Source of the DNA: a virus
Lineage: Duplodnaviria > Caudoviricetes
IMG/VR virus record: IMGVR_UViG_3300046170_000404
Coordinates: 1 to 59,619 of that record
Reading direction: 5' to 3' (one strand)
DNA length: 59,619 nucleotides
The notes below the pieces were generated by a model. The model was not told where the DNA came from, made no database searches, and saw only the letters and a program-made list of their open reading frames with translations. Position numbers and translations under genes: made by a program. Below, piece by piece: positions 4,330 to 33,016 of the stretch (positions within the stretch are counted from its first letter, which is position 1; the number at the start of each line of letters is the position of its first letter).

Positions 4330-4358
4330 TTGACGGATCAAGATCAATGCCCTAAAGT
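4330..4358 (+). promoter_or_regulatory. Sigma70-type promoter of the candidate sRNA
   Basis: TTGACG-17 bp-TAAAGT. Confidence 0.7.
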
Positions 4359-4364
4359 TATCTC

Positions 4365-4460
4365 GAGTAATGTTTGTTATCATTTTCATTACCTCAATTG
4401 TTAGTTATATTCTTAGGCTCACGTTTTTGAATTTCCTTTCTAGTGAGCCTAAGTTTTATT
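4365..4460 (+). ncRNA. Candidate trans-acting small RNA, about 95 nt
   Basis: Predicted +1 coincides with a 5' hairpin; single-stranded linker AATTGTTAGTTATAT; 11-bp terminator stem CTTAGGCTCAC/GTGAGCCTAAG followed by TTTT. Confidence 0.6.
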
Positions 4461-4658
4461 ATGAGAAATCTTTTCGAAACACTAATTGATGTCGGCTCAG
4501 GCTTATTACTATCAACATTAGTGCAGCTATATATATTCCCCTATTTCGATATGTATCCAACGGTATGGGAGTCCTTTCATATAGCAGTCATATTTACGGC
4601 TATTTCTATTTGCAGATCCTGGTTGTGGAGAACATTTTTTAGAAGAAAAAAATCTTGA
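4461..4658 (+). CDS. Small two-TM membrane protein (DUF7220-like)
   Basis: ETLIDVGSG...IFP.F...IFTAISICRS..WR.FF pattern. Confidence 0.65.
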   Translation: MRNLFETLIDVGSGLLLSTLVQLYIFPYFDMYPTVWESFHIAVIFTAISICRSWLWRTFFRRKKS

Positions 4659-4706
4659 AAAAAAATTTTTTACCTATATATTTAATTTACTAACTTAGGA
4701 GAAATC

Positions 4707-4762
4707 ATGAGTTATATGCTTTAGCTTGCAGTTTGGCGATTGCTCCCTAGGCTGCAAGTTAA
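4707..4762 (+). other. Five-codon minigene (MSYML) with strong SD, followed by a 16-bp hairpin
   Basis: AGGAG at 4697-4701; ATG at 4707; TAG at 4722-4724; hairpin 4721-4762. Confidence 0.4.
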
Positions 4763-5202
4763 AGTTCAATATTTAAATCCTTTTTAAAATTATCAACATA
4801 AACATTATCAGCGTCCATAATTTGTCTACGTTTGTTTTCTATATTACGTCTAAGCTCACGTCTTAAATCATTATCGGTTTCTACTTTAAGTCTTTGAAAT
4901 AACTTATCGTATTCATACCAAAGAAAATGTTTTCTCTTAAATTTTATGTCCCCGTTCTTCAATGCTTTGTAATACCGGTACCTAACATTATCGGGTTCCC
5001 ATCCTGCCCACCAACAGATCTGTTCAAAATCTTCTGAAGCTGCTATCCAATAATGCGCATCAGTTTTGTGTAAAGAAGCTTTACGATCAGCACTCAAGGA
5101 TCTTGTATCCTCAAACGCATTTAAAATTACATGCCTCCATAACTTCTGTTCATTACAGATGTGATTTTCTTCTATAATATCGGCAGTTATTTTAATGCCC
5201 AT
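4759..5202 (-). CDS. Hypothetical phage protein (EQKLWRHVILNAFED pattern)
   Basis: ORF track; start placed at the MGIK ATG. Confidence 0.75.
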   Translation of the reverse strand: MGIKITADIIEENHICNEQKLWRHVILNAFEDTRSLSADRKASLHKTDAHYWIAASEDFEQICWWAGWEPDNVRYRYYKALKNGDIKFKRKHFLWYEYDKLFQRLKVETDNDLRRELRRNIENKRRQIMDADNVYVDNFKKDLNIEL

Positions 5203-5407
5203 AAGTTTTAATAAGTCTACTGAGTAGAGCACGATAATGGCCTTTCGATTTTTTAAAATTTAATCGAGTGGCGACCTCAAAGTGTTCGTGTACATCATCA
5301 ATCAAAGTTGTGATGGCTGCGCCTTCTAAGTTTTCTTCTTCAATATGTTCAGAGATATCTCTAAAATCTAATTGTGCTTCTGCTTTAGTATACTTATCCG
5401 CCATCAT
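5192..5407 (-). CDS. Hypothetical protein
   Basis: Operon-like overlaps with neighbours. Confidence 0.65.
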   Translation of the reverse strand: MMADKYTKAEAQLDFRDISEHIEEENLEGAAITTLIDDVHEHFEVATRLNFKKSKGHYRALLSRLIKTYGH

Positions 5408-5771
5408 TCGTAGCATCCTGTTTGTAATCACTAAATTTGATGACGTTGTTTTTACTTTTATTTTTTCTTTTAAAATTAGAAACCTTTGATGGATCGGGTT
5501 TATGCTTTTTAAATTTTGATAATGTTTTTTCTACTTCATCTAAATCTTTATCTATTTGTGCAAAGAATTCTTTATCATCCTGGTGTATCTCATATATGTC
5601 ATTAGCATCATTTAAGAAACGCTGATCCATCTCAGTATAACCGTAATTAACCCCATGCAACATAGCAAAGATTACAGAAGTAAGTTTACTGTATTGTGTT
5701 TTTGAAAATTTTTTAGAAGCTGCAATAAGCAACTTCGTCAAATCAGTGATACCATCCGTTTTGTTTGCCAT
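5394..5771 (-). CDS. Hypothetical protein
   Basis: 125 aa ORF. Confidence 0.7.
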   Translation of the reverse strand: MANKTDGITDLTKLLIAASKKFSKTQYSKLTSVIFAMLHGVNYGYTEMDQRFLNDANDIYEIHQDDKEFFAQIDKDLDEVEKTLSKFKKHKPDPSKVSNFKRKNKSKNNVIKFSDYKQDATNDGG

Positions 5772-5955
5772 TAATATAATCCCACGCTACCTTAAATAAT
5801 AATACTTGTTCTGCTTCTGATGATGAGCCGTGAGACGTGCTTCCTGATCCATTGCAAATGATACAAGATACAAAACTATTGACTAGAAGTCTTTTATTAA
5901 CCCTGTACCTTTACAGTCGGTACATATCTTGTAGGTTGCGTAATAGTTTAGTCAT
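5743..5955 (-). pseudogene. Small DnaJ-type zinc-finger protein, frameshifted (errors or pseudogene)
   Basis: Hand translation gives ICTDCKGTG and, in another frame, SCIICNGSG...VAWDYINGKQNGWYH*: two CxxCxGxG motifs. Confidence 0.55.
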
Positions 5956-6017
5956 ATAAAAAATTTACCTTCATAGGCAAGTACTTATTATAAACTAATC
6001 AGTGTCGTGGGTACAAG
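5943..6017. repeat. Copy 1 of a 75-bp direct repeat
   Basis: Nearly identical to 6581-6654. Confidence 0.95.
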
Positions 6018-6574
6018 GGACAGGAATTATTTTTTTACAGTAAACTAACTTAGGTTTTAAATTTTCTCTATCCCAAATTCTTTTACCATTCTTAAATACA
6101 CCTTTTTCTTTTCCAGATACTCTCTTACAAGTATAGCCATGAGTCTTACCAACAAGGTCCCATTTATCTTTTTTATACAGATCTGCAGTTCTAGGTGGTT
6201 CAATTAAAGATTCAAAACCTATGACCTTATTTTTATATTTATTATACCAATCAATACTAATTTGAGATCTCCATGTAGCTAACACCTTAGAAGTAAAGTT
6301 ACGAGTTGGATACTTTCCATTAACTTTTTCTACATGATAAAAGATATTATTTATAATGTTAGGAAATTTAGATTTATCAATTCCAAAAGTATTCATTGCG
6401 TCCTGGTAGAAACAAAGTGCAGCTCCCACCAATAATATGGCCATAATAAATATCATTATAGTAAATCGCATAACAAATAGATCTTCCTACAAAACCTTTT
6501 GGCTTTGTGTAATGTTTAGCCATTGATTGTTTAAGTCGTTCATCATTCTTTAAAGTTACTTCTAAACGAATCAT
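5995..6574 (-). CDS. DUF4338 (DruA/Mom-like GNAT-fold) protein, frameshift near 6385
   Basis: KHY....GR.I.Y, INNIF, NFTSKVL, DW..KY, ESLIE, LYKKDKWDLVGKTHG resemble the DUF4338 motif series; recognised by eye. Confidence 0.55.
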
Positions 6575-6580
6575 TCCCAA

Positions 6581-6654
6581 ATAGTTTAGTCATATAAAAA
6601 ATTTACCTTAGTGGCAAGTACTTATTATAAACTAATCAGTGTCGTGGGTACAAG
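6581..6654. repeat. Copy 2 of the 75-bp direct repeat
   Basis: Nearly identical to 5943-6017. Confidence 0.95.
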
Positions 6655-6705
6655 TTACAAGAAAAATATTTTTAATTAAAATGTTGTATGTTATATTTAC
6701 TTATC

Positions 6706-7819
6706 ATGAAAATAACTATTTTAGGAAGGGGTAATGCTGGATGTATATCTGCAATGCACCTTGCATATTTTAGAAAATTTAAAAATACTAAAGTAGAAAT
6801 AGATTTAATTTACGACTCTAACATTCCACCAGTGCCTACAGGTCAAGGTACTACGTTAGAATTTCCTGAAAAATTATTTGAAAATTTTGGCTCAAGTATT
6901 TTTAAATCATTTCCACATACTATTAAAGGTGGGATCATGTATGAAAATTGGAATAAAAAAAATAATAAATTCTTTCATTCTTTTCCTGTAGGTAAGTATG
7001 GATTACATATAGAACCTAAGGCATTTCAAGATTATGTATGTAATAATTTAAAAGTAAATTTTATGTCTAAGGATGAAAACATACAAAGCTATGATAGCCG
7101 TGGATTCAGATTACATTATTGATTGCAGAGGTAAGCCCTCTGATTTTAATGATTATGCTCCCCTCGTTAATCCACTTAACTGTGCTTTATTATCTGAGCT
7201 GCCACCAAAGGTAAATGATGTAAAATGGACTAGAGCAATTGCTCATGAACATGGTTGGTGTTTTTATATACCTTTACCAAGTAAAACTTCTTTAGGATAC
7301 CTGTTCAATTCAAACATAACTACAGCTGAAGAGGCTACTCTAAATTTTAAGAAAAAATTTGGAATAGAAAAAGTAAACAAAGTATTTCCTTTTAATCAAT
7401 ATATAGCCAAAGATCCCATTATAGATAATAGAGTCCTTCTTAATGGTAATAAATTATTTTTTTTAGAACCCTTAGAAGCTACTGCAATGGCTACTTATAA
7501 TTTTACTATTCAATGTTACTTCGATTATATGTTTCATAATATTGATGGTCAAACAACTAAATTCAAAATATTAGATTATATAAATAAAGTTGAAAATTTT
7601 ATTTTATGGCAATATCGAAACAATACTTTCTATCAAACTAAATTTTGGGATTTTGCTAATAAGCTTTCATTAAATACAGATCTTGGAGATTTAAATAGAA
7701 TAATGACTGTGGTCAAAGATATGACTGCAGAAGATACTAGAAAAAGTATTAAAGACAATGATAACTATGCTCAATGGCAGAATTGGAATTTTAAAATTTT
7801 TCATGACAACAGAATTTAA
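6706..7819 (+). CDS. Tryptophan-halogenase-like FAD-dependent oxidoreductase, frameshift near 7095
   Basis: ITILGRGNAG Rossmann motif, DYIIDCRG, GWCFYIP, FLEPLEAT. Confidence 0.75.
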
Positions 7820-7844
7820 TTATTTCTTTGGCTCTCTTTGTTTT

Positions 7845-9140
7845 TTACCTTCCTATCAATTCTGCTAAACCTCTACCATAACCTTTTGTAGTTCTACCAG
7901 GTTCGTTTGCTCTAGGAGTCGGATAAAACTTTCTTGATTGCGAGTCCGAAGATTCTTGCCATTTGTGGGACGATTGCGTTTCCGAGACTTTTGATTCTGC
8001 TTGCTCTATCTTTGTCCAATTCTCTGGAAATCCCATTAGGAACTCCACAAAGGTCGGATTCAATTTGCCACCAGGTTTTGGTATTTCGTTCTTTAGCATG
8101 TTGCCCACTACTGTTGATTTCCCCTTCTGACTGATTGGGAACGTCACGTTCTTTGAGTCGTGAGCCGTGGGTGTTGGTATTTGATTCTTGTCTGTGTTGT
8201 AAATCTTGTTCACTACATCGTTCAACTTCGCTCCGAACTTGGTTCCAGTGCCAACCCTCGTTACACTCCAACCTGATGAGTTCTGCTTCACTGTCTCTGG
8301 TGGTGCTACTACATCCATCTGACAACTCGCTGATGGTGTAGGAAACATTTGCATGTGTGCCGTCAGATTGTGTTGAGATGCTGCCTTCTCTCCCTTCCTC
8401 TTGATTAATGTCTCTGCATCCTCCTGTCCCGATGCTCTCGGTGTTGGATACATCTTCACTTGATCTGCTGCTATTCGTTGACCCAGACTGTGACCTCTCG
8501 TTTTCCCTACTGAGGGTGGTACCTTGTTCACTGAGTCCTTCCAATCTCTTGCGTTCGGTGTTGGGTACATCTTCTTTTGTTTCTGTATTTCGTCTGCTAC
8601 TACTCTCATCGATAGATCCATTCCCCTCGTTTTCCCTATTGATGGTGGCACTGTGTTCCTTGAATGATCTTGTGATGTCGGTGTTGGATACATCTTCATC
8701 GTTTCTGGATCCACTTGTTCTCTTAGATTCGATGGTTTGGTTCTGCCCTTCCTGTGTCCCTCCATTAATTTTTTTGTCCCTGCTGAGCTTCTCGGCGGCA
8801 AGTAATCCATTGTGTTTGGAGTGGCCCACAATCCAGACTCTAAATCTTTGGTGCCAAGCACCGATGCCTGAAGCTGGTATAAGGAAACATTGGACTTCGA
8901 AACCTTCACCTTCCAAGTCATCTTGCACCTGTCTGAGGACCATGCCGTTTTGGAGGTTAACAAGTCCTTGCACATTCTCCCCAATAACGAACTCGGGTTT
9001 GATTTCTTTAATGAGTCTAAACATTTCTGGCCAGAGATAACGGTTGTCGTCTCTCCCTTTTTGTTTTCCTGCAACGCTGAACGGCTGGCAGGGAAAACCT
9101 CCGACCACGATGTCTGCTTCGAATTCTTTTCCTTTGACAT
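7845..9140 (-). CDS. Alternative-frame second subunit of the C5 methyltransferase (PTP repeat modules plus motif IX)
   Basis: 431 aa ORF nested in the MTase gene; LNPTFVEFLMGFPENW is motif IX-like; repeated PTP modules. Confidence 0.75.
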   Translation of the reverse strand: MSKEKNSKQTSWSEVFPASRSALQENKKGETTTVISGQKCLDSLKKSNPSSLLGRMCKDLLTSKTAWSSDRCKMTWKVKVSKSNVSLYQLQASVLGTKDLESGLWATPNTMDYLPPRSSAGTKKLMEGHRKGRTKPSNLREQVDPETMKMYPTPTSQDHSRNTVPPSIGKTRGMDLSMRVVADEIQKQKKMYPTPNARDWKDSVNKVPPSVGKTRGHSLGQRIAADQVKMYPTPRASGQEDAETLIKRKGEKAASQHNLTAHMQMFPTPSASCQMDVVAPPETVKQNSSGWSVTRVGTGTKFGAKLNDVVNKIYNTDKNQIPTPTAHDSKNVTFPISQKGKSTVVGNMLKNEIPKPGGKLNPTFVEFLMGFPENWTKIEQAESKVSETQSSHKWQESSDSQSRKFYPTPRANEPGRTTKGYGRGLAELIGR

Positions 9141-9312
9141 TTTTTATATCTCCTTCAATTGGTATGTTTGGATAATTCTTTTTTAAAACCTTTTGACAAA
9201 ACTCATCAAACTCTACAAACTTAATTGTATCAAATATTCCTGTTGAGTGGAGGCCTAACGAGAAGCCTCCAATCCCAGAAAATAAATCTAAAACTTTTAA
9301 TTTATTTTCCAA
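7912..9312 (-). CDS. dcm: DNA cytosine-5 methyltransferase, catalytic subunit
   Basis: Motif I LDLFSGIGG, IV GFPCQ, VI ENV, VIII HQRFR, X LGNAIVP. Confidence 0.92.
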   Translation of the reverse strand: MENKLKVLDLFSGIGGFSLGLHSTGIFDTIKFVEFDEFCQKVLKKNYPNIPIEGDIKNVKGKEFEADIVVGGFPCQPFSVAGKQKGRDDNRYLWPEMFRLIKEIKPEFVIGENVQGLVNLQNGMVLRQVQDDLEGEGFEVQCFLIPASGIGAWHQRFRVWIVGHSKHNGLLAAEKLSRDKKINGGTQEGQNQTIESKRTSGSRNDEDVSNTDITRSFKEHSATINRENEGNGSIDESSSRRNTETKEDVPNTERKRLEGLSEQGTTLSRENERSQSGSTNSSRSSEDVSNTESIGTGGCRDINQEEGREGSISTQSDGTHANVSYTISELSDGCSSTTRDSEAELIRLECNEGWHWNQVRSEVERCSEQDLQHRQESNTNTHGSRLKERDVPNQSEGEINSSGQHAKERNTKTWWQIESDLCGVPNGISRELDKDRASRIKSLGNAIVPQMARIFGLAIKKVLSDS

Positions 9313-9535
9313 TGTATTCTTTTCTACTAGCGTCTCTCATTTTTAAGAATTTAAATTTTGCTATCTTTAACATTCTTTCAAATAAAGACTCTGCTTTAAA
9401 TGTTTTAACAACATTCATTATTTTACCATTCACTATAAATGTAAGTGTGTTGTTTGCATGATCTAACTCAATAGTAAAAAGTTCTTTTGCTTTTATTCGA
9501 GTATCAACTCTTTTTAGATCGTTTTCCGTCATCAT
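9302..9535 (-). CDS. Hypothetical protein
   Basis: Operon-like overlaps. Confidence 0.65.
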   Translation of the reverse strand: MMTENDLKRVDTRIKAKELFTIELDHANNTLTFIVNGKIMNVVKTFKAESLFERMLKIAKFKFLKMRDASRKEYIGK

Positions 9536-9731
9536 TACTTTCTCCGTTTAATAATTTTTTTCTAAAACTTTCAACAGTTGTTTTATTTTTCTTAGCTTGA
9601 TGTTCTACATAATCATTAAGAAGTTTTGAGACCATAGCTCCTGGTGCTCTAAACTTTGATTTGCAAAGTGATTTTAAAATTTTATAATCGTTAGCAGGAA
9701 TTGCTACTGACTTCCATTTATTGATGTCCAT
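9504..9731 (-). CDS. Ribbon-helix-helix (CopG/Arc-like) DNA-binding protein
   Basis: KSVAI strand followed by two helices (DYKILKSLC; GAMVSKLL). Confidence 0.65.
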   Translation of the reverse strand: MDINKWKSVAIPANDYKILKSLCKSKFRAPGAMVSKLLNDYVEHQAKKNKTTVESFRKKLLNGESNDDGKRSKKS

Positions 9732-10008
9732 CTTTGACCTCCATATCTTCAGTTAAAACTAAGGGCTCTTGTTCTACTTCAATTCCATAAGTTCTATATT
9801 TTGTTTTTTCAAGATCTAAAGGCTCTATTGTTTCAGTAATACCTAAAGCATCTTTGAGTCTTTTATTTTCTTCTTTTAATTTATTTATGTTTTCTTCTAG
9901 TAATTTCCAACTACTCATTAATTTATTAAATGCGTTTTGCATTCTAAGTAATGAATGTAATTCTCCTTCAGGCTTTTGTCCTAAGGGTAGTAAGTTATCT
10001 TTGGTCAT
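9718..10008 (-). CDS. Hypothetical coiled-coil protein
   Basis: GAGGAG SD; first gene after the operator-bearing promoter. Confidence 0.7.
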   Translation of the reverse strand: MTKDNLLPLGQKPEGELHSLLRMQNAFNKLMSSWKLLEENINKLKEENKRLKDALGITETIEPLDLEKTKYRTYGIEVEQEPLVLTEDMEVKDGHQ

Positions 10009-10046
10009 TTTGTCTCCTCATATTGTTGGTTTGTTTTTATTATGCT

Positions 10047-10079
10047 ATCTTAAATATATGGGATGTAATTAGAAGTCAA
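10047..10079 (-). promoter_or_regulatory. Promoter with ATCYYA-N6-TRRGAT operator
   Basis: TTGACT at 10079-10074; ATCTTA-AATATA-TGGGAT at 10047-10064. Confidence 0.7.
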
Positions 10080-10291
10080 TGAAAATAATTTTAATAATTT
10101 ATATCTGTTCAGTTGTAGGTGGTAGTTGTGCAAACCCTATACAAATAGAACCCCTTTATAAAGACTCGTTCGATTGCTATGTTGATGGCTACAAAAAATC
10201 AGTAGACTTATTAGAGGAAATGGGTAGAGATGAAGTAAATAAGTATGAGATATATACAAAGTTTACTTGTAAAAAATTATTAGAAATCTAA
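10079..10291 (+). CDS. Small Cys-containing exported or membrane-anchored protein
   Basis: Hydrophobic N-terminus, four Cys. Confidence 0.65.
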   Translation: MKIILIIYICSVVGGSCANPIQIEPLYKDSFDCYVDGYKKSVDLLEEMGRDEVNKYEIYTKFTCKKLLEI

Positions 10292-10552
10292 GTGATTATT
10301 AAATTTATACTATTAACATCATTTTGTTTAACATACCCAAATGGAGAGACAAAGTGTGGACAATACCTTAGAGATAACCTCTCAGATGCCTCAGAATGCA
10401 GATCGATAGCTAAAGCCATAGGTACAGCTAAAAAACGTCAAATCGAAGAATTAGGGGGCTCTATGGCCTCTTACAGTGTATTTTGTTATGCTATTGACAA
10501 ACAAGGCCTGGATATTGACCAAACCTTTGAAATATCTTATAATATCTTATGA
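10292..10552 (+). CDS. Small Cys-containing exported or membrane-anchored protein
   Basis: Hydrophobic N-terminus, four Cys with spacing like the neighbour. Confidence 0.6.
   Translation: MIIKFILLTSFCLTYPNGETKCGQYLRDNLSDASECRSIAKAIGTAKKRQIEELGGSMASYSVFCYAIDKQGLDIDQTFEISYNIL
10515..10543 (+). promoter_or_regulatory. Near-consensus sigma70 promoter for a leaderless transcript
   Basis: TTGACC-17 bp-TATAAT; ATG 5 nt downstream. Confidence 0.7.
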
Positions 10553-10743
10553 CAGCTTATCGTATCAAAGCATACATGGGAGGCTTGCAAGTAGACCAAG
10601 TAGTCGAAGCAGCCGATTGCAAAGAAGCGATTTTAAAAGTGTCAAAACAAGTGGAGGATGGTACTACTGAAGTTATCAATGATGGCTTCACTGGTAATAA
10701 AAGACTTCACGTAACATACGAGGAGATCGTAAATGTTAAGTAA
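10549..10743 (+). CDS. Hypothetical protein
   Basis: ORF track. Confidence 0.65.
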   Translation: MTAYRIKAYMGGLQVDQVVEAADCKEAILKVSKQVEDGTTEVINDGFTGNKRLHVTYEEIVNVK

Positions 10744-10918
10744 AGAAAAATTGGAGTTGCTTAAAAAACTTCAACACAAAGAGCATACTTGGTCAGCTAG
10801 TCTTATGACAAATGGAATATGTACTACTGAGATGTTAAAGACTGAGAGTGAAATTAAATCTCTTAGAAATGAGTTAAAGCACCAAGATGTTCAAGAACTC
10901 TTAGCTGCAACAGGCTAA
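10733..10918 (+). CDS. Hypothetical protein
   Basis: GAGGAG SD; ORF track. Confidence 0.65.
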   Translation: MLSKEKLELLKKLQHKEHTWSASLMTNGICTTEMLKTESEIKSLRNELKHQDVQELLAATG

Positions 10919-11343
10919 GTTTTATTTGGTTTTAAAAAACTAAACTTTTTTCCTAGGGATTCTTTCGGCTTAATAAACTCATAATGGTTTATAATTTTTA
11001 AAAGTCTTTCTCTTTTTACAGTAGCATAGGGTAAAAATAATTTTGCAAGATGTAATGCTTTTTGGTGTGAACATCTCCATCTCCATTGATCTACCTTACC
11101 TAATGATCCTTTACCTATACCCTTAAAATGAATACTTCCAACCTTAACAATATCATAAAAATTTTTAATACAATCTAAATCAGTCATTGCAATCTCCATC
11201 GCAACATTCCATTTTAAATAAGTCTTACCGTTTGGTTTATTACATTTATATTGTGCGTAATTAATATTACCTTCACCATCAAACAATCCTGCTGCGTAAG
11301 CCATTAAGTCTTTGTTATCGTGAGGGAAATTTCTACTTAGCAT
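10915..11343 (-). CDS. Single-motif LAGLIDADG endonuclease-like protein
   Basis: AYAAGLFDGEGNI motif; free-standing, directly after the polymerase. Confidence 0.75.
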   Translation of the reverse strand: MLSRNFPHDNKDLMAYAAGLFDGEGNINYAQYKCNKPNGKTYLKWNVAMEIAMTDLDCIKNFYDIVKVGSIHFKGIGKGSLGKVDQWRWRCSHQKALHLAKLFLPYATVKRERLLKIINHYEFIKPKESLGKKFSFLKPNKT

Positions 11344-13207
11344 CTCCCCAACTTTTTCCAAGTCCTACATCAACTACTGAAGGTACTTTAAATTCAATTG
11401 AGTCTTCCATAATATTTTTAATATCTTTTGCATGAGCCTCATCTTTTATATTAAAACAAAGTTCATCATGGATCTGTAACATTGGTAAGTGGCCTGCATT
11501 GTAGCAATCTAACATTGATTGTTTTGTTTGATCAGCTGAGGATCCTTGAATTAATCTATTTAAAGCTTTGTATGTAAATGCTCTTTTAATATTATCTTTG
11601 CCATATTTTGCTACTGCATTATCAAATGTTTCAGCTTGGTGTAACCCAAAGTCTCTTGTTTCCCATTTATCAAATCTACACTTCCTACCTTTTTTAGTTC
11701 TTATCACACCCTTCTCATCTGCTGCTAACTTACATCTGTCAGATAGTTTTCTAATAAATGGCACCTTCTTATTATATTTTGTAATTAATTCATCTGCTTC
11801 ATCTTTAGTAACACCTAATGACAATGCTAATTTATTCTTACCCATTCCATACATGATACCAAGGCCAATAGTTTTAGCTTGAGTTCTCTCAATACCCACA
11901 AGATCTGCAACTGTTTGATGAAAGTCTGCACTGTTATCTTTATATGCTTCAACTAATTCTTGAGATCCTGCATAACCATTTTCTCCAATAGATGCTGCAT
12001 AGTGTACAGTCATTCTAGGTTCTTGTTGTGAATAATCAAATGATCCCCATTGATATCCCTCTTCTGGTATAAATAATGATCTTATCTTTGGTCCTAAATC
12101 TTTGTTTCTAGCAGGTACTTGTTGTAGGTTTGGGTTACTCATGGATAGTCTACCCGATACAGTTCCCCCTAAATCAGATCTAAGTTGTTGGATCTCTCCA
12201 TGTATTCTACCTTTGACCTGGTATCGAAGTATTGATGACAGGAAAGTGCTATGAAATTTATTTACCTCTCTGGCTTGCACAATCAATTGGGCTAGTTTAT
12301 GTTTGTTATTTATTAACCAATTTTGTGTAAAGGAAGGCTCTTTTGTTTTTTCAGTTCGTGGATAGTCTAGTTTCATTTTGTCAAAAGCTTTGGCAATCTG
12401 GCGTGATGCCCAAATGTCTACTTCTATTCCTGATTCTTTTTGTATGGCCTCCAGTATTACTTTTTCTTGGCTCAACATTTCTTTTTTTAGTTGTTCAGCT
12501 AATTCCACTTGGACTCTCACTCCTCGTTGACGCATTTTTATCAACACCGGAATTAATTGTTGTTCTAAATCCCACACAGTTTCTAGACTCTGAGTTCTTA
12601 TCTCTTGTTTAAATCTTTGCCATAACTTTAATGTAAGCACTGCATCTTGCTCTGCATAATATCCAACATGCTCTGCAGGTAACTTCCACATCTCTGCTTT
12701 AGGATCTATACCATGAGCCGCGGCAGCTTCTCTTAATTCTGTTTCTGCTTTTATTTCTCCAAGATAATCTACTGACAATGCATTTAATGAATAACTAAAT
12801 CTATTCTCATCTATTAATGCTGCGGCAATCATTGTATCTACTATTGGTCCGTTGACCGTGATCCCAGATGCTTCTAACCATCCTACATCATACTGAGCAT
12901 TATGAAATATTTTTGCACAAGGTAAGCTACAAACTTTTTTCATGTATGCTTTGACTTGTTCAGGTATCATATTACCACCACCTAAATGACCAAACGGAAA
13001 GTATCCTTGCCATCCATCAACGGCTACTGCAAAACCTACAATCTCTCCTTTACCTAAAGCCCAACCAGCTCCAAGCTTTTCATTAATACCATCGTCCCTA
13101 GTTTCTAAGTCGATTGCTATCTCAGTTGCACTAGATAGATCTTTATACTCTGATGGTGTGTTCCACATTGATTTCTTAAATGTTAACGTGAGTTGTAGTC
13201 CGTTCAT
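11333..13207 (-). CDS. polA: Family A DNA polymerase with 3'-5' exonuclease
   Basis: IDLET, FHNAQYD, GRLS..NPNLQQ, DYSQQEPR, KTIGLGIMYG, IHDE. Confidence 0.95.
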   Translation of the reverse strand: MNGLQLTLTFKKSMWNTPSEYKDLSSATEIAIDLETRDDGINEKLGAGWALGKGEIVGFAVAVDGWQGYFPFGHLGGGNMIPEQVKAYMKKVCSLPCAKIFHNAQYDVGWLEASGITVNGPIVDTMIAAALIDENRFSYSLNALSVDYLGEIKAETELREAAAAHGIDPKAEMWKLPAEHVGYYAEQDAVLTLKLWQRFKQEIRTQSLETVWDLEQQLIPVLIKMRQRGVRVQVELAEQLKKEMLSQEKVILEAIQKESGIEVDIWASRQIAKAFDKMKLDYPRTEKTKEPSFTQNWLINNKHKLAQLIVQAREVNKFHSTFLSSILRYQVKGRIHGEIQQLRSDLGGTVSGRLSMSNPNLQQVPARNKDLGPKIRSLFIPEEGYQWGSFDYSQQEPRMTVHYAASIGENGYAGSQELVEAYKDNSADFHQTVADLVGIERTQAKTIGLGIMYGMGKNKLALSLGVTKDEADELITKYNKKVPFIRKLSDRCKLAADEKGVIRTKKGRKCRFDKWETRDFGLHQAETFDNAVAKYGKDNIKRAFTYKALNRLIQGSSADQTKQSMLDCYNAGHLPMLQIHDELCFNIKDEAHAKDIKNIMEDSIEFKVPSVVDVGLGKSWGDAK

Positions 13208-13452
13208 TTTTTTTCTTCTTTCAAATGTTGTTTCTCTAACTCGCAGTAATGAATAATCTTGTCTATATCTTCTATTGTTTTACCTTTAAATAAATATCTA
13301 CATACATACTTAATTACATTTGCTTGAAAAGGATTGAGACCATTCTTTCGTATAAAAGTCCATGGTTGAATAATAAATGATTGATAGTGAGATCCTCCAA
13401 TTTGTTTTTCATCTGCATCTTTAGTTTCATCAAACATTTTTTTATTTGTCAT
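13204..13452 (-). CDS. DUF3310-family protein
   Basis: QIGGSHY...NVIKY.CRY..KG..ED..K..HY. Confidence 0.8.
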   Translation of the reverse strand: MTNKKMFDETKDADEKQIGGSHYQSFIIQPWTFIRKNGLNPFQANVIKYVCRYLFKGKTIEDIDKIIHYCELEKQHLKEEKK

Positions 13453-13453
13453 A

Positions 13454-14089
13454 TTAATTTAAAATTAATTTGTTTATACTTTTTTCATACCCAGCAATTC
13501 CTTTTACGAAAACATTAAAACCTAAACTGACTCTAGTGTAATTTTGTTCATTAATTTCTACATAATGTTTTAAATTTGATGGAAAAATAATAAGCATTCC
13601 CTTGTTTACTGGAAAAATACATTTGTAAGAATTGTAAGTGTTGTATTTTTTTGGTTTACCAAAATAAATTATATCACTAGTATCTCTTCTAGTTGTTGTT
13701 TTAAAATTTATTGCATCATTTTGTTTGTCACTATTTACATAAAAGACACCAGAAATTATAGAGTTTTGGTGTATATGAACATGATGCCCTTGATCTTTGT
13801 TATTATAATTTAACCAAGATTGCAAAATATATGGTTTTAATCCATCTTCAATGGACACTACTTCTTTAAAATAATTATTTAAATGTTCCTCAAAAAAAAA
13901 TTTTAAATTTTTTAATCTCGAATCATTTAAAACATTAGTACATTGAGAAGTAAAATTTTTATATTTGTTTTCATTTGTATTATTAAAATTTTCTTTAACT
14001 GAATTTATTTCTTCTTCAGTCAAATTTCTTTGTAGTTCAGTTTGATACAAAGGCACTGAAAATAATGGATTAATTTTAAAATTTGTCAT
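13454..14089 (-). CDS. Putative 2OG-Fe(II) oxygenase (TIGR02466-like)
   Basis: SW.N, HIH, ISGVFY, IIFPS.L.H.V, RVSLGFN. Confidence 0.85.
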   Translation of the reverse strand: MTNFKINPLFSVPLYQTELQRNLTEEEINSVKENFNNTNENKYKNFTSQCTNVLNDSRLKNLKFFFEEHLNNYFKEVVSIEDGLKPYILQSWLNYNNKDQGHHVHIHQNSIISGVFYVNSDKQNDAINFKTTTRRDTSDIIYFGKPKKYNTYNSYKCIFPVNKGMLIIFPSNLKHYVEINEQNYTRVSLGFNVFVKGIAGYEKSINKLILN

Positions 14090-15722
14090 TTTTCTCCTGT
14101 ACGTAAATCAAATAGTCTTGTCCAATTGGGTAGTTAAACTTATAGTCTGTTCTTAATAAATGTAAAGTTTTTCTTGCTCTTGTTGCACCGGTGTACCAAA
14201 CCTTACGTTCATCACTTTTTTCTTGTTTGTTTTTGTTTGCATAATCAGATGGGTAGTTACCTTTACTGTATAAGACAACATGATTTGCTTCACCACCTTT
14301 TACACTATGTATTGTATCTATGGTTATTAATGGATCTTTATCTAATTCTTTTTGACCATACCTTCTTAATAATCTAATAAAGTGTCTTACTTGTCTTGGT
14401 TTAAAATTTCTTCTTAATATCCAATACCAAGGTTTATTTTTTTGTGTATCCTCTAATGCTAAACCACACCACTCTTTTAAAGTTTGGAAATCATATTCTC
14501 TTAGATCTGGTTCATTTCTCCAAAATTTATCTAATCTGTATGCAGGGTCTTCAAGTTCTCTTATATACTTAACCATATTACGTGCTGCTCTTTTATCTAT
14601 CTTCTTATTATTACTTAAAGTTGTCCAAGCTTTGATAGCTTCCCATTGTTTCTGATCAAAACATTTAGTGCCCTTATTATCTTTGTAATATAAACCTGCA
14701 TCCTTAGCTAACATTCTAAGTTCATTAACAGTTTCATTAATACGACCTAGAATATACCAATCTTCTTTAAAAGTTTCGAAAGGAATTTCTTTAAATGATA
14801 AATAACTTTTAACAGATCCTTTAGAGTTTCCTGGTTGATATTCTTTCTCTTCACTATCTCTTATCCCTCTTCTAATTACTTGAGAGAACCTATGAATTGC
14901 TTCTCCAAACCTTTGAGTCTTTCTTAATTTTACTTTTCGACCTGGAAAGAACTTAGTAAAATATTTTGGATCAGCTCCATTCCATTTGTATATAGCTTGA
15001 TCATCATCTCCTGCTAAATATATTCTATCTACTTTAGGTGCCATCTTATATAACACTGACCATTGTAACGGTGTACAATCTTGTGCTTCATCTAAAATTA
15101 AAACTTTAAGTGGTGGAAAATCTACTTCTGTAATTGCTCTTTGAATCATATCGTCAAAGTCTATAAAGGATCTCTCTCCTCCACCTGTCTTATAGTGTTC
15201 GTAAGTATCTATCTTTCTTTTAAATACTGTAAGTGAATCTCTTTTATAACTCTCCATTTTATATGCTTCTTCTGGATCAATTAGTAAATTTCTGGCTTTA
15301 CTATAAACTCCTAATGACCAATCTTTATACATGAAATTATCATCGGCTAATCTTTTATCTGAAGACTTAATTACTTTAGTCTGTAGTGCAAAATCAATTG
15401 TACAATCTTTAGGATCAAATACTTCTTCTGGAAAATATCTACGACAATAGGTATGTAATGTTTTAAATCTTGAAAAGTCTTCTGTAGAATAATTAGGAAA
15501 AGATTCCATGGCTCTTTTAACTGCAGTGTTAACTGCTTTGTTGGTAAATGATAAGTAAGCAATATCATTTGGCCTAATACCTTTTCTTAAATAACTTTTA
15601 AGTACCTTCTCAATCAGTGTGTATGTTTTACCTGTACCTGGAGGACCAAAGATCTTCACTGTCTTATGATAAAGATCTTTAAGTATTTTAAGTTCTAAAC
15701 TTTCCTGTGTGGAATTCGTCAT
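14076..15722 (-). CDS. UvrD/Rep-like SF1 helicase
   Basis: GPPGTGKT, DEAQD, GDDDQAIY, TIHSVKGGE, YTGATRA. Confidence 0.92.
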   Translation of the reverse strand: MTNSTQESLELKILKDLYHKTVKIFGPPGTGKTYTLIEKVLKSYLRKGIRPNDIAYLSFTNKAVNTAVKRAMESFPNYSTEDFSRFKTLHTYCRRYFPEEVFDPKDCTIDFALQTKVIKSSDKRLADDNFMYKDWSLGVYSKARNLLIDPEEAYKMESYKRDSLTVFKRKIDTYEHYKTGGGERSFIDFDDMIQRAITEVDFPPLKVLILDEAQDCTPLQWSVLYKMAPKVDRIYLAGDDDQAIYKWNGADPKYFTKFFPGRKVKLRKTQRFGEAIHRFSQVIRRGIRDSEEKEYQPGNSKGSVKSYLSFKEIPFETFKEDWYILGRINETVNELRMLAKDAGLYYKDNKGTKCFDQKQWEAIKAWTTLSNNKKIDKRAARNMVKYIRELEDPAYRLDKFWRNEPDLREYDFQTLKEWCGLALEDTQKNKPWYWILRRNFKPRQVRHFIRLLRRYGQKELDKDPLITIDTIHSVKGGEANHVVLYSKGNYPSDYANKNKQEKSDERKVWYTGATRARKTLHLLRTDYKFNYPIGQDYLIYVQEKNDKF

Positions 15723-17238
15723 CCATCTCCGATACAGTTTTAGTTGTTTCTTTTTTCTCTGCTACTTTGTAATCAACAAACTTAGGCATCATTACTGACC
15801 ATACATTCTTAACTCCTTCATGATAATCATGCCTGTCACAATTAAGAAGATTCAATGCTTCACTAGCACTCTTAAATGTTTTATCACTACCTAAAAACTT
15901 TTCAAAAGTAATCTTTTTAAAATAACAAATATTTGTTGAAGAGTCGAGTATAACATAATTATCTTTAAGTTTCTCGAAATCATCTTCTTCAATATGAGAC
16001 TCAAAGAATTTTTTAAGAAAATTATATTTCTCTTCACCAAGTGTGTCTTCAAATTTCATCTTCTCATTCTCTACTGCTTTTCTAACTAATGTAGCCATAA
16101 GCATTTCAAATGGAGATGGTCCCGACTTAGGTTTAGGTAATGTCATCCAATAGATACCATATCTAAGTAACTTAACTCTAAAAGATTTTTCATCTTTCAT
16201 ATCTTCTGGATTAATTATTATTTTCTCATCTTGAAACTTAAATGTGTATTCAATTGATTTAGTGGATCTAATAAACTCTACATCTTCAAAGTCATCAATC
16301 ATATCTGGTACTTGTGAACCAATACCCAGCTTTCTTAATTTACATAGATCCTTATTACATAGGGGTGCAATTGCATTTGTTTTAGGTGGACATTTATAAG
16401 TATAATCTTTTTTAGATATAGACTTAGCAAGTGTCTCTACTTCTTTTGGATCTAACGGGGTTGTAAATATTTCATAGTTTCTTTTCTGTAAAATATTTTG
16501 CATCTCATTTGCATTTAAGCTGCCATCGGCTTTCTTCATTTCAAGAACACCAACATTAAATAATAGTTCGTTACGGTGGTTACCTTCCCATTTTTCTGAA
16601 ATCATTTTCTGAACACAAGGAGGATAATGTTTCCAATCACTCTCTGGTTCATACTCTTTAACTTTAATATTATTTAACTGCTCCAAAGTCACAGTCTTTT
16701 TAGTTATCATTTCTAAAAAATTATTTATCATTACTGGAGTATTGTTATCATTGTAAGCAAACTCAGTAGTTTGATCCATGTTGAAGTAAGGCATGTTCAA
16801 ACATTTGTTCATAGGAAATACTTCTTCAGAATAGAAAAAAGTTTTATTCCACTCATTTAAAACTTTAAGAACTTCTTGAGTAGGATACCAATCATTTAAA
16901 AATAAAAATAAATGTAACCCACCAGATTTAGATCTTACTGCTATTAATGGTAGTTGATTGTCTCTTATGATATCTACAATTTTCTTTTCTGAAAATGTAG
17001 TATAGTTACGAGGATCAATATCAATACATCCCCATTTACACACGTCACCGTTCTCAGGTTTAATCCCAATCCGTGTCTCTCCTTTTAAATGTTTCTTCCA
17101 TAGTTCAAGGGTAACAGGTTCGTGAACCGTGAGTACTTTAACCTGCTTCTTTCCCCGTTCATCAACTTCCCCCGTAAGAGAAGTTGTGATGAACAGTTCA
17201 GAATTACCCTCAAATATTTTTAAGAGTTTTTGCTCCAT
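15688..17238 (-). CDS. AEP-superfamily primase with Cys-rich C-terminal domain
   Basis: IDID, RSKSGGLH, PPC...RN...YKC...C...C pattern. Confidence 0.75.
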   Translation of the reverse strand: MEQKLLKIFEGNSELFITTSLTGEVDERGKKQVKVLTVHEPVTLELWKKHLKGETRIGIKPENGDVCKWGCIDIDPRNYTTFSEKKIVDIIRDNQLPLIAVRSKSGGLHLFLFLNDWYPTQEVLKVLNEWNKTFFYSEEVFPMNKCLNMPYFNMDQTTEFAYNDNNTPVMINNFLEMITKKTVTLEQLNNIKVKEYEPESDWKHYPPCVQKMISEKWEGNHRNELLFNVGVLEMKKADGSLNANEMQNILQKRNYEIFTTPLDPKEVETLAKSISKKDYTYKCPPKTNAIAPLCNKDLCKLRKLGIGSQVPDMIDDFEDVEFIRSTKSIEYTFKFQDEKIIINPEDMKDEKSFRVKLLRYGIYWMTLPKPKSGPSPFEMLMATLVRKAVENEKMKFEDTLGEEKYNFLKKFFESHIEEDDFEKLKDNYVILDSSTNICYFKKITFEKFLGSDKTFKSASEALNLLNCDRHDYHEGVKNVWSVMMPKFVDYKVAEKKETTKTVSEMDDEFHTGKFRT

Positions 17239-17244
17239 GGTTAA

Positions 17245-18060
17245 TTAAAATGGAGTTGCTTCTTTAGGTGCGTTTCCTTGTGATTGATTCTCTTGGGAGA
17301 AGTCAACCTTACCAAAGATATCACTCTTCATTGCACTCTTATAAAACCCTTGAGTAGCCTCTAATATTTTTAAATGATCAGTTGCGTTCAAGAATGAATT
17401 AAATTCTATAACCCAACCATACCATGAGTTCTTAGAATTAGATTCTTTAGTCGTACTCAATTTATAAGTCGTAGACCAAGACGCAGGATTATACATCCCG
17501 TTCTTACCCTGCGTTCTTCTAGATTGAATCATAGAGTTCCAAGTTTTGGATTTCTTTTTTTGAGTTGACTTTAAAGGTATTAAGGCTTGTTCAATTGGAT
17601 TTAAATCTTTATCCAATATGTAAACAAAATGATTACCCGTATCCTCGATATAATTACCATTAGGCAATCTATCCTTATTATCTGCAGACCTAGTAGTCTC
17701 AGACATAATTGCAGGATCCGTGTGTATTGCTACAGGTCTTCCTAAACCTTCACCTTTGTCCTTCCACTCATTAAATGTGTTTATGTAAAGACATGGTGCT
17801 ACTATCAAACCTTCTTTACCTTTCCACACAGTACCAGATGTTTCACTCCATATATCGCCCTGTCTTGCAGATTCGACAAATTTACCATCTGTCTCATCTA
17901 ACACAGGAGAGTTAGCATAAAGTATTTTTAACATTGGAAGTTTTTGATCTCGAGCTGTTGTAAACTCTTGACCTTGTCCCGCCATACTCTCTAAATCAAA
18001 TTGAGCTGGTAGGTTTTCTTTTTTTGTTGCTATCGCTTTTTCTTGTTGCTTTTCTATCAT
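17245..18060 (-). CDS. Putative single-stranded DNA-binding protein
   Basis: Position in the replication operon; C-terminus ending in PF. Confidence 0.6.
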   Translation of the reverse strand: MIEKQQEKAIATKKENLPAQFDLESMAGQGQEFTTARDQKLPMLKILYANSPVLDETDGKFVESARQGDIWSETSGTVWKGKEGLIVAPCLYINTFNEWKDKGEGLGRPVAIHTDPAIMSETTRSADNKDRLPNGNYIEDTGNHFVYILDKDLNPIEQALIPLKSTQKKKSKTWNSMIQSRRTQGKNGMYNPASWSTTYKLSTTKESNSKNSWYGWVIEFNSFLNATDHLKILEATQGFYKSAMKSDIFGKVDFSQENQSQGNAPKEATPF

Positions 18061-18062
18061 GG

Positions 18063-18608
18063 TTACTCCTTCGTGGTTATTTTAGTTTTATTTGCAACGT
18101 AAGTTCCAAACAATTCTGCAGGAACATCTTTACCTAAATCTGCGATCTGTTCTTTTACGAACGATCTTAGACTACTAGGATGTACTGATGTTTTCTGTTG
18201 AACTGCTAGACCTTTATTCTTCAACTCTTCTACAAGTGCTTTGGCTTCATTGTCTTGCTTCATTTTAAACTCCAAAGATACTTGGTTTTTAATCAAGTCT
18301 CCATGACCGTTTGCACGTAGCCAATCAAAAGCTTCTTCACTTCTAGATGCTGGTATTCTTGCAGAGTAGAATGGTTTAACCTCTACGGATATTCCACCTT
18401 CGAGTTTAATTAACTCTACACCTGCTTGTTGCATTAAGTTTGGAATTGTTTGCTCAGAAAGATTAGTCTCAACTTCTTTTAACTTCTTTAGTTCTTCTTC
18501 AGCCGTTGCTATTTTTTTCTGAGTTTCCAATAACTTTTTGCAAGAGTCGGTAATGTCAGTCGACATCGCCATATCTATATTTACTATAGATTCTGCTTCT
18601 AAGTCCAT
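18063..18608 (-). CDS. Conserved phage replication-region protein
   Basis: AFDWLR.NGHGDLIK...VHPSSL pattern. Confidence 0.75.
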   Translation of the reverse strand: MDLEAESIVNIDMAMSTDITDSCKKLLETQKKIATAEEELKKLKEVETNLSEQTIPNLMQQAGVELIKLEGGISVEVKPFYSARIPASRSEEAFDWLRANGHGDLIKNQVSLEFKMKQDNEAKALVEELKNKGLAVQQKTSVHPSSLRSFVKEQIADLGKDVPAELFGTYVANKTKITTKE

Positions 18609-18680
18609 AAGAACCTCCTTGGTCGAATCAATATATTATTTGTTTGATCTTTGCAAATAAATAATTTAAATAATTTTACA

Positions 18681-20087
18681 ATGTATAAATACAAAACAGA
18701 ACCCTTCAAGCATCAAAGAAGATCGCTTGTAGAAGGGGCTAAACCTTACAACTTTGCATACTTCATGGAGATGGGAACTGGTAAGACAAAAGTTGCTATA
18801 GATAATGCAGCTTACTTGTTTCAAGATAAAAGAATTGATTTTGCATTTGTAATTGCACCAAACTCTGTATACCAAAATTGGAAAAAAGAAATTAATATAC
18901 ATTGTCCAGAAGATACTAATATTTATATTTGGAAAGTATCAAAGGATAAAACATTTAGAATGGATCCAGATAAACTTACATTTGTACTTATGAATGTTGA
19001 AGCGTTATCCCATGCTTCAGGTAAGAAGTGGTTAGAATCTAAATTACAAAAACATGGTATGAGAAGTATGATTATATTAGATGAAAGTACTTCAATTAAA
19101 AATTTAAGAGCATCAAGAACTAAGACTATAATTAAATTAGGTCAACTTGCTAGATACAAAAGAATTCTTACAGGTTCTCCTATAACTAAGTCTCCATTAG
19201 ATTTATTTTCACAATGTGCATTCTTAGATAAGAAGTTATTGGGGTATGATAATTATACAGTATTTAAAGCTAAGTATGCAGTTATGTTTAGTATAGAACG
19301 GGGTGGATACAATATACAAATACCAAAGTATTATGTAAATCTTGAAGAGTTAGAATATAAATTAAAAAACTTTTCATATAGGGTAAGAAAAAAAGATTGT
19401 TTAGATTTACCTGAGAAGATGTATGTACAAAGATATGTAGATCTACCAGATGAACAAAGAAAAGCTTATGAACAATTAAAAGAATCTGCATTAATGATCT
19501 TGAGAGATGCAGAGGTATCTTACAATAATAAACTTACTGAACTACTTAAATTACAACAAGTTGCTAATGGCTTTGTCAAAACAAATGAAGGAGACATTGT
19601 AGATTTTAAAACTAATGCCAAGCTTAATGAGTTAATGAATATAATAGGAGAGACAGAAGACAAGTGTATTATCTGGGCTAACTATGTTCATAATATTGAA
19701 AGCATCAAAAAGAAATTAGCAGAGACTTATGGTGTAGATTCAGTTGTATCTATCTATGGTAAAGACTCAGTAGATGTTCGTAATCAAGCAGTAGAAAAAT
19801 TTCAAAACAATGATGAGTGTAGATTCTTAGTTGGTAATCCAACAGTAGGTGGTTATGGTTTAACATTAACTGCTGCTAAATATGTTATCTATTTTAGTAA
19901 TTCATACAATCTAGAAGTCAGACAACAAAGTGAAGACAGGGCTCATAGAATAGGACAGAAGTCCCAAGTAACTTATATTGATATAATTTGTAGAGATACT
20001 ATTGATCAAATGGTATTACACAATCTTGAAAACAAAATTGAATTATCTGCTAAGACTCTTGGGGAACAGGTTCAGAAGTGGCTTTAG
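18681..20087 (+). CDS. SNF2-like SF2 helicase
   Basis: MEMGTGKT, LDES, LTGSP, GGYGLTL, QSEDRAHRIGQ. Confidence 0.92.
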   Translation: MYKYKTEPFKHQRRSLVEGAKPYNFAYFMEMGTGKTKVAIDNAAYLFQDKRIDFAFVIAPNSVYQNWKKEINIHCPEDTNIYIWKVSKDKTFRMDPDKLTFVLMNVEALSHASGKKWLESKLQKHGMRSMIILDESTSIKNLRASRTKTIIKLGQLARYKRILTGSPITKSPLDLFSQCAFLDKKLLGYDNYTVFKAKYAVMFSIERGGYNIQIPKYYVNLEELEYKLKNFSYRVRKKDCLDLPEKMYVQRYVDLPDEQRKAYEQLKESALMILRDAEVSYNNKLTELLKLQQVANGFVKTNEGDIVDFKTNAKLNELMNIIGETEDKCIIWANYVHNIESIKKKLAETYGVDSVVSIYGKDSVDVRNQAVEKFQNNDECRFLVGNPTVGGYGLTLTAAKYVIYFSNSYNLEVRQQSEDRAHRIGQKSQVTYIDIICRDTIDQMVLHNLENKIELSAKTLGEQVQKWL

Positions 20088-20790: not shown

Positions 20791-20798
20791 AAGGTCTT

Positions 20799-21014
20799 TT
20801 AGTTTATTTTAAATACAAGGGCAACTATTATTCCTATCATTGATGTCATTAAAAATGCAGTTGAAGATATTAGAATCTTTTCAATTCTATGAATATCTGT
20901 GTGTAATTCTTTTATTTGTTTATTAGTATTTTCTTGCATAATTCTGCATAACTTCTCATGGTCATCCATTCTTTGATGAGCGAGTATATCTTTATTAGAA
21001 GCTTTTCTTGGCAC
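20799..21014 (-). CDS. Small protein with coiled coil and C-terminal TM
   Basis: HE..C..coiled coil followed by a hydrophobic tail. Confidence 0.6.
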   Translation of the reverse strand: MPRKASNKDILAHQRMDDHEKLCRIMQENTNKQIKELHTDIHRIEKILISSTAFLMTSMIGIIVALVFKIN

Positions 21015-23607: not shown

Positions 23608-23615
23608 ATAAATCC

Positions 23616-24477: not shown

Positions 24478-24479
24478 AC

Positions 24480-26717: not shown

Positions 26718-26752
26718 AGTCTATTTTCCTAATAATAGCATATAATACCATT

Positions 26753-28544: not shown

Positions 28545-28565
28545 TTAAGTCTTATATTTCATAAT

Positions 28566-29997: not shown

Positions 29998-30011
29998 AGA
30001 AAATATTTTAA

Positions 30012-32982: not shown

Positions 32983-33016
32983 GGCTTATTATACCATGAC
33001 AATATTAAGAAATCTA

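Follow-up and report, generated by a model that had tools for sequence, protein, structure and literature searches.

Antisense control of phage genes is textbook knowledge, most of it gained with temperate coliphages and with RNAs that have one, overlapping target. Bacterial trans-encoded base-pairing small RNAs (sRNAs) combine a 5' hairpin, a single-stranded seed and a Rho-independent terminator and act at start regions, and RegA of phage T4 is a single phage protein that shuts off many phage mRNAs at theirs. The c4 RNA of phages P1 and P7 has more than one target box, is cut from the same operon transcript and serves the immunity of temperate phages. Its exposed parts pair around the ribosome-binding site and block translation, a function that depends on its fold, and sar of P22 and OOP of lambda are short phage antisense RNAs with promoters of their own, of which sar controls antirepressor synthesis and OOP pairs with the cII mRNA and promotes RNase III cleavage (PMC12197685). 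Cluster K mycobacteriophages carry the start-associated sequences (SAS), a short oriented repeat a few bases before some start codons that is kept across relatives and whose role was left unknown by the authors, with an RNA or a protein as binder both open (PMC3203893). Here we describe a putative sRNA gene on the plus strand (promoter and RNA unit, positions 4330 to 4460) of IMG/VR virus record IMGVR_UViG_3300046170_000404, a 59,619-base stretch with a completeness judged to be 99%, which was analysed at its full length and is called the window below. The window phage is an HTVC023P-like pelagiphage with nearly all its genes on the minus strand, and of the deposited phages only Pelagibacter phage HTVC023P is a near relative; the phage group dominates marine viromes and infects SAR11. 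From comparison with relatives a real small RNA gene, present as a conserved unit on the plus strand, is very probable, and repression in trans of leaders tagged with AACUAACA is the best-supported mechanism, for which we see slightly better than an even chance.

The first-pass annotation, made from the letters of the window, had placed a promoter, a first hairpin, a linker and an 11-bp second hairpin with a U-tract at this site, and sequence, scan and fold located each of them at the position claimed. A sigma-70-like promoter (TTGACG at 4330-4335, a 17-nt spacer and TAAAGT at 4353-4358) has its predicted start near 4365, where hairpin 1 (4365-4395) begins; its stem is formed by GAGUAAUG and CAUUACCUC with one bulged C and is closed by CCUC (4392-4395, anti-Shine-Dalgarno), and CAU occurs at 4381-4383 and 4387-4389, within the loop (4373-4386) and the 3' arm. 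The linker that follows (4396-4411) is unpaired in both the minimum-energy and the centroid fold and contains the seed UUGUUAGUU (4398-4406), the complement of AACUAACA(A). Hairpin 2 with its U-rich tail (4412-4460) pairs 4412-4422 with 4443-4453 around a 20-nt loop (4423-4442) and continues into UUUUAUU (4454-4460), a terminator-like 3' end for an RNA of ~95 nt; our terminator scan missed it because only loops of 3-8 nt were allowed there. Folding of 4365-4460 gave -24.0 kcal/mol against -9.9 +/- 2.5 for 200 shuffles, none of which was as good (z -5.6). The promoter was rated at 9 of 12 matches by the promoter scan, a match that is meaningless on its own because shuffled sequence gives as many sites (49 in the window vs 42.1 +/- 7.6 in shuffles). 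The unit occurs once in the window. Searches of the whole window with Rfam 15, including c4 (RF01695), gave zero matches at the gathering score, and positions 4250-4550 at E <= 10 returned just three chance matches to eukaryotic families, far below their gathering scores, so that the unit appears to be a new RNA family matching no Rfam model.

In its architecture and its proposed action at the start region the unit resembles the bacterial trans-encoded sRNAs, from which it differs by its origin in a virulent-type phage and its proposed aim, the phage's own genes reached through a shared tag. From RegA it would differ in that the effector is an RNA and not a protein. Like c4, it would be a phage small RNA whose exposed parts pair around the ribosome-binding site to block translation and whose function depends on the fold (PMC12197685). 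Unlike c4, the unit sits in a phage of a type that has been called lytic (PMC12753301); it also has its own promoter and a terminator-like hairpin, and its candidate targets are dispersed mRNAs. It shares the short length, the antisense orientation and a promoter of its own with sar and OOP (PMC12197685), which act on the transcript they overlap, whereas the strand overlapped by the pelagiphage unit is without a conserved gene and the seed matches leaders 1.5-5 kb away.

The unit lies in a divergent gap whose left side is formed by terS (Pfam Terminase_2, start at 4017, minus strand). Relatives of the locus were fetched through the TerS protein (80 loci kept of 112 relatives) and through the DUF7220 protein encoded on its other side (80 of 139), and BLAST with positions 4280-4475 detected the unit in 32 of 161 loci. 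A further 19 viral and 69 metagenome stretches came from pattern scans; among the 60 distinct fragments, 22 were judged chance matches and the other 38 related. Alignment A1 comprises the window and 34 of the 38, with L181 and L228, which are cut, and L016 and L166, which are without hairpin 2, left aside. A covariance model was built from 35 close variants, and the covariance searches took in 44 and 56 chosen loci out of 260. Full-length matches at E <= 0.01 were obtained in 34 of 44 terS-neighbour loci, all of these loci having been obtained through TerS alone, and HTVC023P matched with 42.9 bits directly after gp20. Relative to terS, all covariance matches lie 300-1700 nt upstream and on the other strand.

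Pairing is well preserved within this family. Among the 35 close variants the helices pair in 95.7% of 622 cells; for hairpin 2 the figure is 95.3%, with 7 of its 11 pairs changed on both sides. Eight pairs in all show both-side changes, a number attained by none of 500 shuffles (3.2 +/- 1.1), and when the partner was slid by 1-3 columns as a control, pairing went down to 21-43%. Distant copies have wholly different stem sequences and retain the pairing. When 22 diverse copies were aligned independently with MAFFT, RNAalifold again returned both hairpins; 15 of 18 pairs showed compensatory changes, and most pairs of hairpin 1 showed double changes. Despite the complete change of the stems, the linker, CCUC and CAU are kept across clades; the part TTGTTAGTT of the linker is identical in 22 of 22 diverse copies, an invariance that is in part built in, since the seed belongs to the pattern and to the model with which the copies were found. 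Seed variants are present in L019/L020, L068/L075 and L069/L070, and these copies fold alike. The tract UUUCCUUUCU in the loop of hairpin 2 (4432-4441), which the first-pass annotation had read as a second anti-Shine-Dalgarno element, is present, although as a general feature it did not hold up: only the window's sub-clade and two neighbours keep it, and the clades beyond have different U/C-rich hairpin 2 loops.

A distant clade, G001, whose TerS is 66% identical, reached only 16.6 bits with the covariance model. At the equivalent place, opposite the genes (L254:1500-1600), it carries TTGAAC-17-TATAAT, ~65 nt with UUUUCAUUCCUUUC, a CCCTGGG/CCAGGG hairpin and T7. This short promoter-to-terminator unit is without the seed and lacks UGUUAGUU, and the leaders of G001 read AACAACAA and not AACTAACA; the unit may encode a related RNA that has diverged and changed its code.

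Strand and promoter are equally consistent across copies. Read on the plus strand, the cells of hairpin 2 contain 42 G.U pairs, compared with a single one when read on the minus strand; hairpin 1, at 32 vs 16, separates the strands less clearly. Of 48 distinct copies, 46 give the more stable fold on the plus strand, and the means are -24.0 vs -19.4 kcal/mol. Of 45 distinct upstream sequences, 44 have a -35 box (TTGACA, TTGACG, TTGACT or TTTACA) 30-35 nt ahead of hairpin 1, and a hexamer starting with TA follows 17 nt past the box in 41 of these 44, separated by a spacer whose sequence varies freely. In L192 the upstream sequence is unrelated, yet TTGACA-17-TATCAT is found at the same distance, the promoter having been swapped in this lineage. 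The G.U asymmetry, the fold and the promoter together argue for a plus-strand transcript beginning a few bases before hairpin 1, and a promoter of its own directly upstream of the RNA, identified by comparison and with a predicted start, is what characterizes a stand-alone sRNA gene. By comparison of sequences the unit, its promoter, its fold and its strand are thus established, and an sRNA gene on the plus strand is strongly supported by promoter conservation, hairpin covariation, G.U asymmetry and the stand-alone position in most relatives.

The same counts bear on the minus strand, where the locus looks like the start of a gene. A 30-codon frame (MKMITNITRDN..., 4297-4389, minus) stands behind a look-alike AACTAACA, GAGG and ATG, and we judged it not to be a gene. 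Over 49 copies an ATG follows ACTAACA by 14-28 nt in 47, and two have no ATG; the frame behind it ranges from 0 to 58 codons and is often ATG-stop (M*), MIKT* or MKKK*. It shifts even between near-identical copies, the frames of L041 and L048 differing because one T differs. A 30-aa minus-strand gene was therefore rejected. The first-pass annotation had named a leader of this frame as the finding that would overturn an RNA gene; since the frame is not conserved, the RNA gene stands. With no conserved peptide on the opposite strand a type I toxin-antitoxin pair was likewise rejected, and no conserved overlapped coding gene, of the kind expected for a cis-antisense RNA of the P22 sar type, was found among the 49 copies. 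That the look of a start region is conserved and the protein is not is as expected if a plus-strand RNA must pair with start regions. One could also take the stretch for another minus-strand cassette of hairpin, AACUAACA, Shine-Dalgarno and AUG, read by a common protein or ribosomal factor, for example as a mini-frame that loads ribosomes or as a site of processing ahead of terS, with the plus-strand RNA being secondary. The hairpin, the tag, the Shine-Dalgarno-like word and the ATG do stand at the usual spacing, as in real leaders, in 47 of 49 copies, a common factor would explain tag variants at the locus and the leaders together, and the authors on the Cluster K SAS left an RNA or a protein binder open (PMC3203893). 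We nevertheless hold it to be quite unlikely, as the G.U pairs of hairpin 2 become A.C mismatches there, the minus strand folds worse in nearly every copy, the mini-frame is in some copies missing or no more than ATG-stop, and the conserved plus-strand promoter at its fixed distance would have no role.

On the plus strand the unit is followed in the window by a gene for a small membrane protein of 65 aa (4461-4658; DUF7220, Pfam PF23858, E 1e-14), which begins 7 nt past hairpin 2. Promoter and hairpins could accordingly be the promoter and structured 5' leader, an attenuator, of this gene, which in the window and its nearest relatives has the same 7-nt distance and neither a promoter nor a Shine-Dalgarno sequence of its own; a relative's RNA-library contig that runs over 4212-4658 fits as well. 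However, the DUF7220 gene stands behind just 14 of 49 copies, and as 33 of 49 have no plus-strand open reading frame (ORF) of at least 40 aa starting within 90 nt, the unit is not merely a DUF7220 leader. L018 and the L015/L190 group keep promoter, both hairpins and linker in the absence of the gene, and so does L016 with promoter, hairpin 1 and linker, where the next hairpin forms the end. The unit of HTVC023P ends in a perfect terminator facing a convergent gene. DUF7220 itself has 139 tblastn relatives in IMG/VR, many of them in unrelated contexts without the RNA unit. As a general explanation a DUF7220 leader is largely refuted by these occurrence counts, and we regard it as very improbable; the gene is a passenger behind the RNA unit, probably expressed by read-through. 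DUF7220 relatives commonly overlap the stop codon of a cytosine-methyltransferase-like gene, and the gene moves around.

What the RNA might act on is suggested by the occurrence of the seed complement. In the window AACTAACA is found on the minus strand at 1908, 1915, 2668, 2803, 4399 and 59385. Six copies are no over-representation (5.29 +/- 2.04 expected; 44 of 100 shuffles reach 6), and what is non-random is their placement, all six being on the minus strand, within 59385..4406 and directly 5' of a ribosome-binding site. Across the 80 terS loci (507 kb, redundant) there are 200 copies on the gene strand vs 16 on the other, and 109 of 154 distinct contexts have a Shine-Dalgarno-like word and a start codon within the next 30 nt. 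HTVC023P contains ACTAACA 7 times vs 2.17 expected, always on the gene strand. The enrichment at leaders on which the first-pass annotation had made its case to depend was thus found, and comparison establishes AACTAACA as a strand-specific leader motif throughout the phage group. The same three orthologous genes are tagged in all clades, with products reading MGFD..., MSNKQISK... and ..FKDLKK...

Four candidate targets, all on the minus strand, were assigned in the window. Candidate A (2654-2675) is the leader AACTAACAAAGGAGCAATAATG of a 179-aa gene (2117-2656), and B (1894-1922) has two overlapping AACTAACA and then ATGGAGCAAAAATG in the leader of a 205-aa gene (1279-1896); their orthologues (MGFD... 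and MSNKQISK...) are tagged in relatives. Candidate C (59370-59392) is the leader AACTAACATGGAGAAAAAAAATG of an 82-aa gene (59124-59372), and D (58200-58229) is the leader ATATAACTAAAAACGAGGTAAAAAAATG of a 110-aa gene (57870-58202), with an imperfect tag. Complements of the linker at these distant start regions had been claimed before and do exist, except that 58203-58229 holds ATATAACTAAAAACGAGG and not the exact 8-mer. When 101 start regions were ranked by pairing with the RNA, four of the five best were tagged ones: D first (-27.3 kcal/mol, 28 pairs, -27 to +10), A second (-22.4 kcal/mol, 25 pairs, -20 to +14), B third (-19.8 kcal/mol) and C fifth (-18.7 kcal/mol). The duplexes, with 22-28 pairs from about -27/-20 to +8/+14, span tag, Shine-Dalgarno sequence and AUG, so that a conserved single-stranded seed is complementary to target start regions as in the trans-encoded sRNA class. 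A further AACTAACA (2803-2810, minus) occupies codons 4-6 of a 54-aa gene (2656-2820), and tag and context are kept in relatives; its pairing was poor (-11.9 kcal/mol) because the -35..+15 frame cuts the tag. This gene follows TTGACA-17-TATTCG (2821-2862 region, minus) and its mRNA may be leaderless, and TTGACA-18-TAATAA (59393-59440, minus) would start the mRNA of candidate C 2-4 nt before its tag. With promoters this near, the tag may mark the extreme 5' end of these mRNAs.

As the linker mirrors a tag in front of the phage's own genes, the RNA probably controls their translation. A stand-alone RNA of ~95 nt would be made from the plus strand by host RNA polymerase, opposite nearly all phage genes, with a hairpin at either end, the 3' one resembling a terminator, and an unpaired seed (CCUC..UUGUUAGUU). 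The seed would pair with AACUAACA just 5' of the ribosome-binding site of several mRNAs encoded between terS and terL, and pairing would spread across Shine-Dalgarno sequence and start codon through CCUC and CAU in or beside hairpin 1, keeping ribosomes off and perhaps exposing the duplex to RNases. Because terL lies at 55832-57316, the claimed target genes fall between terS and terL in circular order, a place like that of gp22-gp28 of HTVC023P.

An action in cis would dispense with these distant targets. The plus-strand RNA would then be antisense to minus-strand read-through from the replication-side genes (4759-6471) towards terS, and would insulate or time the packaging and late genes, either through a duplex that RNase cleaves or through collision of transcription from the two strands; its resemblance to leaders would be left over from a leader duplication. 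The unit invariably separates terS from the upstream module and lies on the opposite strand, perfect complementarity in cis is given, and the classical OOP and sar act on overlapping transcripts (PMC12197685). Such an action needs no particular sequence, yet linker, CCUC and CAU were kept where the stems changed completely; its partner in cis has no conserved frame to regulate, and other leaders carry the motif matched by the seed in a strand-specific manner. We regard it as unlikely, if less so than a minus-strand cassette. About as doubtful as the latter is an RNA that is real and aimed at host mRNAs or the ribosome, or that serves replication or packaging. In its favour, anti-Shine-Dalgarno-like tracts (CCUC, U/C-rich loops) occur in the RNA of every clade, and in the window the RNA is 100-200 nt from iteron-like TTTTCCTAG repeats conserved with HTVC023P, with terS near. 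This adjacency is not itself conserved, because a 133-aa gene separates repeats and unit in HTVC023P, and the most conserved block of the RNA is the complement of the phage leader tag and not of the Shine-Dalgarno sequence alone.

Read by eye, seed and tag change together in two lineages. L019/L020 have the seed UUGGUAGUU and leaders A(A/T)AACCAAAGGAG carrying ACCAAAGGAG, and L068/L075 and L069/L070 have the seed GUUAAUU and leaders AATTAACAA. A regex table of seeds against leaders was muddied, since the regex also caught antisenses of real leaders. If seed and tag do drift together (UUGGUAGUU/ACCAAAG; GUUAAUU/AAUUAAC), one ~95-nt RNA reading AACUAACA on separately promoted mRNAs could switch a whole set as a private post-transcriptional regulon, and its lineage-specific code could hit a co-infecting relative, as in P1/P7 heteroimmunity; we put this forward as a tentative idea only, less probable than trans repression as such. 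The layout has a parallel in the SAS: several Cluster K genomes have a single SAS copy on the complementary strand (Figure S3 legend, PMC3203893), the same arrangement as the lone antisense copy of the pelagiphages. The two differ in that the SAS contain the Shine-Dalgarno core, whereas AACUAACA lies just 5' of it, and in that the sections of PMC3203893 on the SAS tie no antisense RNA to them, whereas the pelagiphage tag has a candidate partner RNA.

Several observations weigh against a stand-alone RNA acting in trans, in addition to the built-in invariance of the seed. The 40-nt core pairs with start regions better than 300 of 300 of its own dinucleotide shuffles, but equally good pairing with other start regions is reached by 22 of 101 antisenses of ordinary start regions; the total complementarity of the RNA is what any anti-start-region sequence would give, and for this reason energy was dropped as evidence of targeting and the ranking alone was used. 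When own and foreign leaders were compared (differences of 0-2.4 kcal/mol; 37 of 49 loci with at least 4 downstream starts), own leaders were only 1-2 kcal/mol better in two clades and not better in the window's clade. The co-change of seed and tag would also fit one common factor for the locus copy and the leaders, or homogenisation by recombination. It is weakened further by AATTAACA leaders that are found alongside the canonical seed too, which a G.U pair could tolerate, and ACTAATA leaders are likewise found with it. At least five T in the 8 nt past hairpin 2 are present in 32 of 49 copies, leaving 17 of 49 without a good U-tract; a 13-row sub-clade reads (A)TCTAAAAAA instead. L064 and L067 have tagged leaders and the unit was undetected in them, on fragments of 22.6 and 15.5 kb (38% and 25% complete). 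At the place of the unit, on the strand opposite terS, L064 and L067 (L067:3600-3700) show TTGATT-17-TATATT followed by the tag AACTAACA in sense orientation, which could be a decoy or a different cassette.

Of the RNA libraries, thirteen runs matched at most 28% of the 3000-6000 words, and contigs of four metatranscriptome runs were compared over 3700-5300. They cover coding and non-coding sequence (including 3996-4235) alike, without strand, ends or level, and the contig over 4212-4658 mentioned above passes through the hairpin into the DUF7220 gene. A contig start at 4365 is not a mapped 5' end, because contigs break (4339/4365) where the promoter spacers of the relatives differ. Infection of HTCC1062 by HTVC027P, which is of this phage type, has been followed over time by directional RNA-seq, and the early genes of HTVC027P are described as scattered and all of unknown function (PMC12753301).

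The surroundings of the unit offer some further observations. Identity to HTVC023P is 75-78% across terS and the adjoining non-coding DNA. In the window terS is split into overlapping frames of 97 aa (3724-4017) and 87 aa (3510-3773) within 3510-4017 on the minus strand; in HTVC023P it is a single 168-aa gene, and RNA-library contigs of relatives are one base short at 3729/3730. The split may reflect a frameshift, a homopolymer sequencing slip or programmed slippage. Non-coding positions 4018-4300 contain five to six TTTTCCTAG repeats, partly as inverted pairs, together with long A/T tracts and GGTAC repeats; their identity to HTVC023P places this stretch under constraint, and its possible roles are those of a pac or terminase-binding site and of an origin. 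Beyond the DUF7220 gene, 4690-4757 holds a five-codon frame ATGAGTTATATGCTTTAG behind a strong TTAGGAG site and then a 34-nt hairpin, CTTGCAG...CTGCAAG, which recurs as the 3' hairpin of the RNA-unit copies L016, L068 and L069. Relatives' contigs have 74 other letters in place of 4659-4737.

A literature search, judged by titles and abstract openings, found no small RNA or sRNA of pelagiphages, and the words sRNA and antisense did not occur in the portions considered of published work on HTVC023P-type phages, including PMC12753301. The RNA family described here is kept across the phage group and brings with it a testable set of targets, the tagged leaders, and the existing directional RNA-seq of HTVC027P allows its central prediction to be checked without new wet work (PMC12753301). 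If true, repression through the shared tag would account for a short oriented motif before a subset of genes, a puzzle first raised by the mycobacteriophage SAS.

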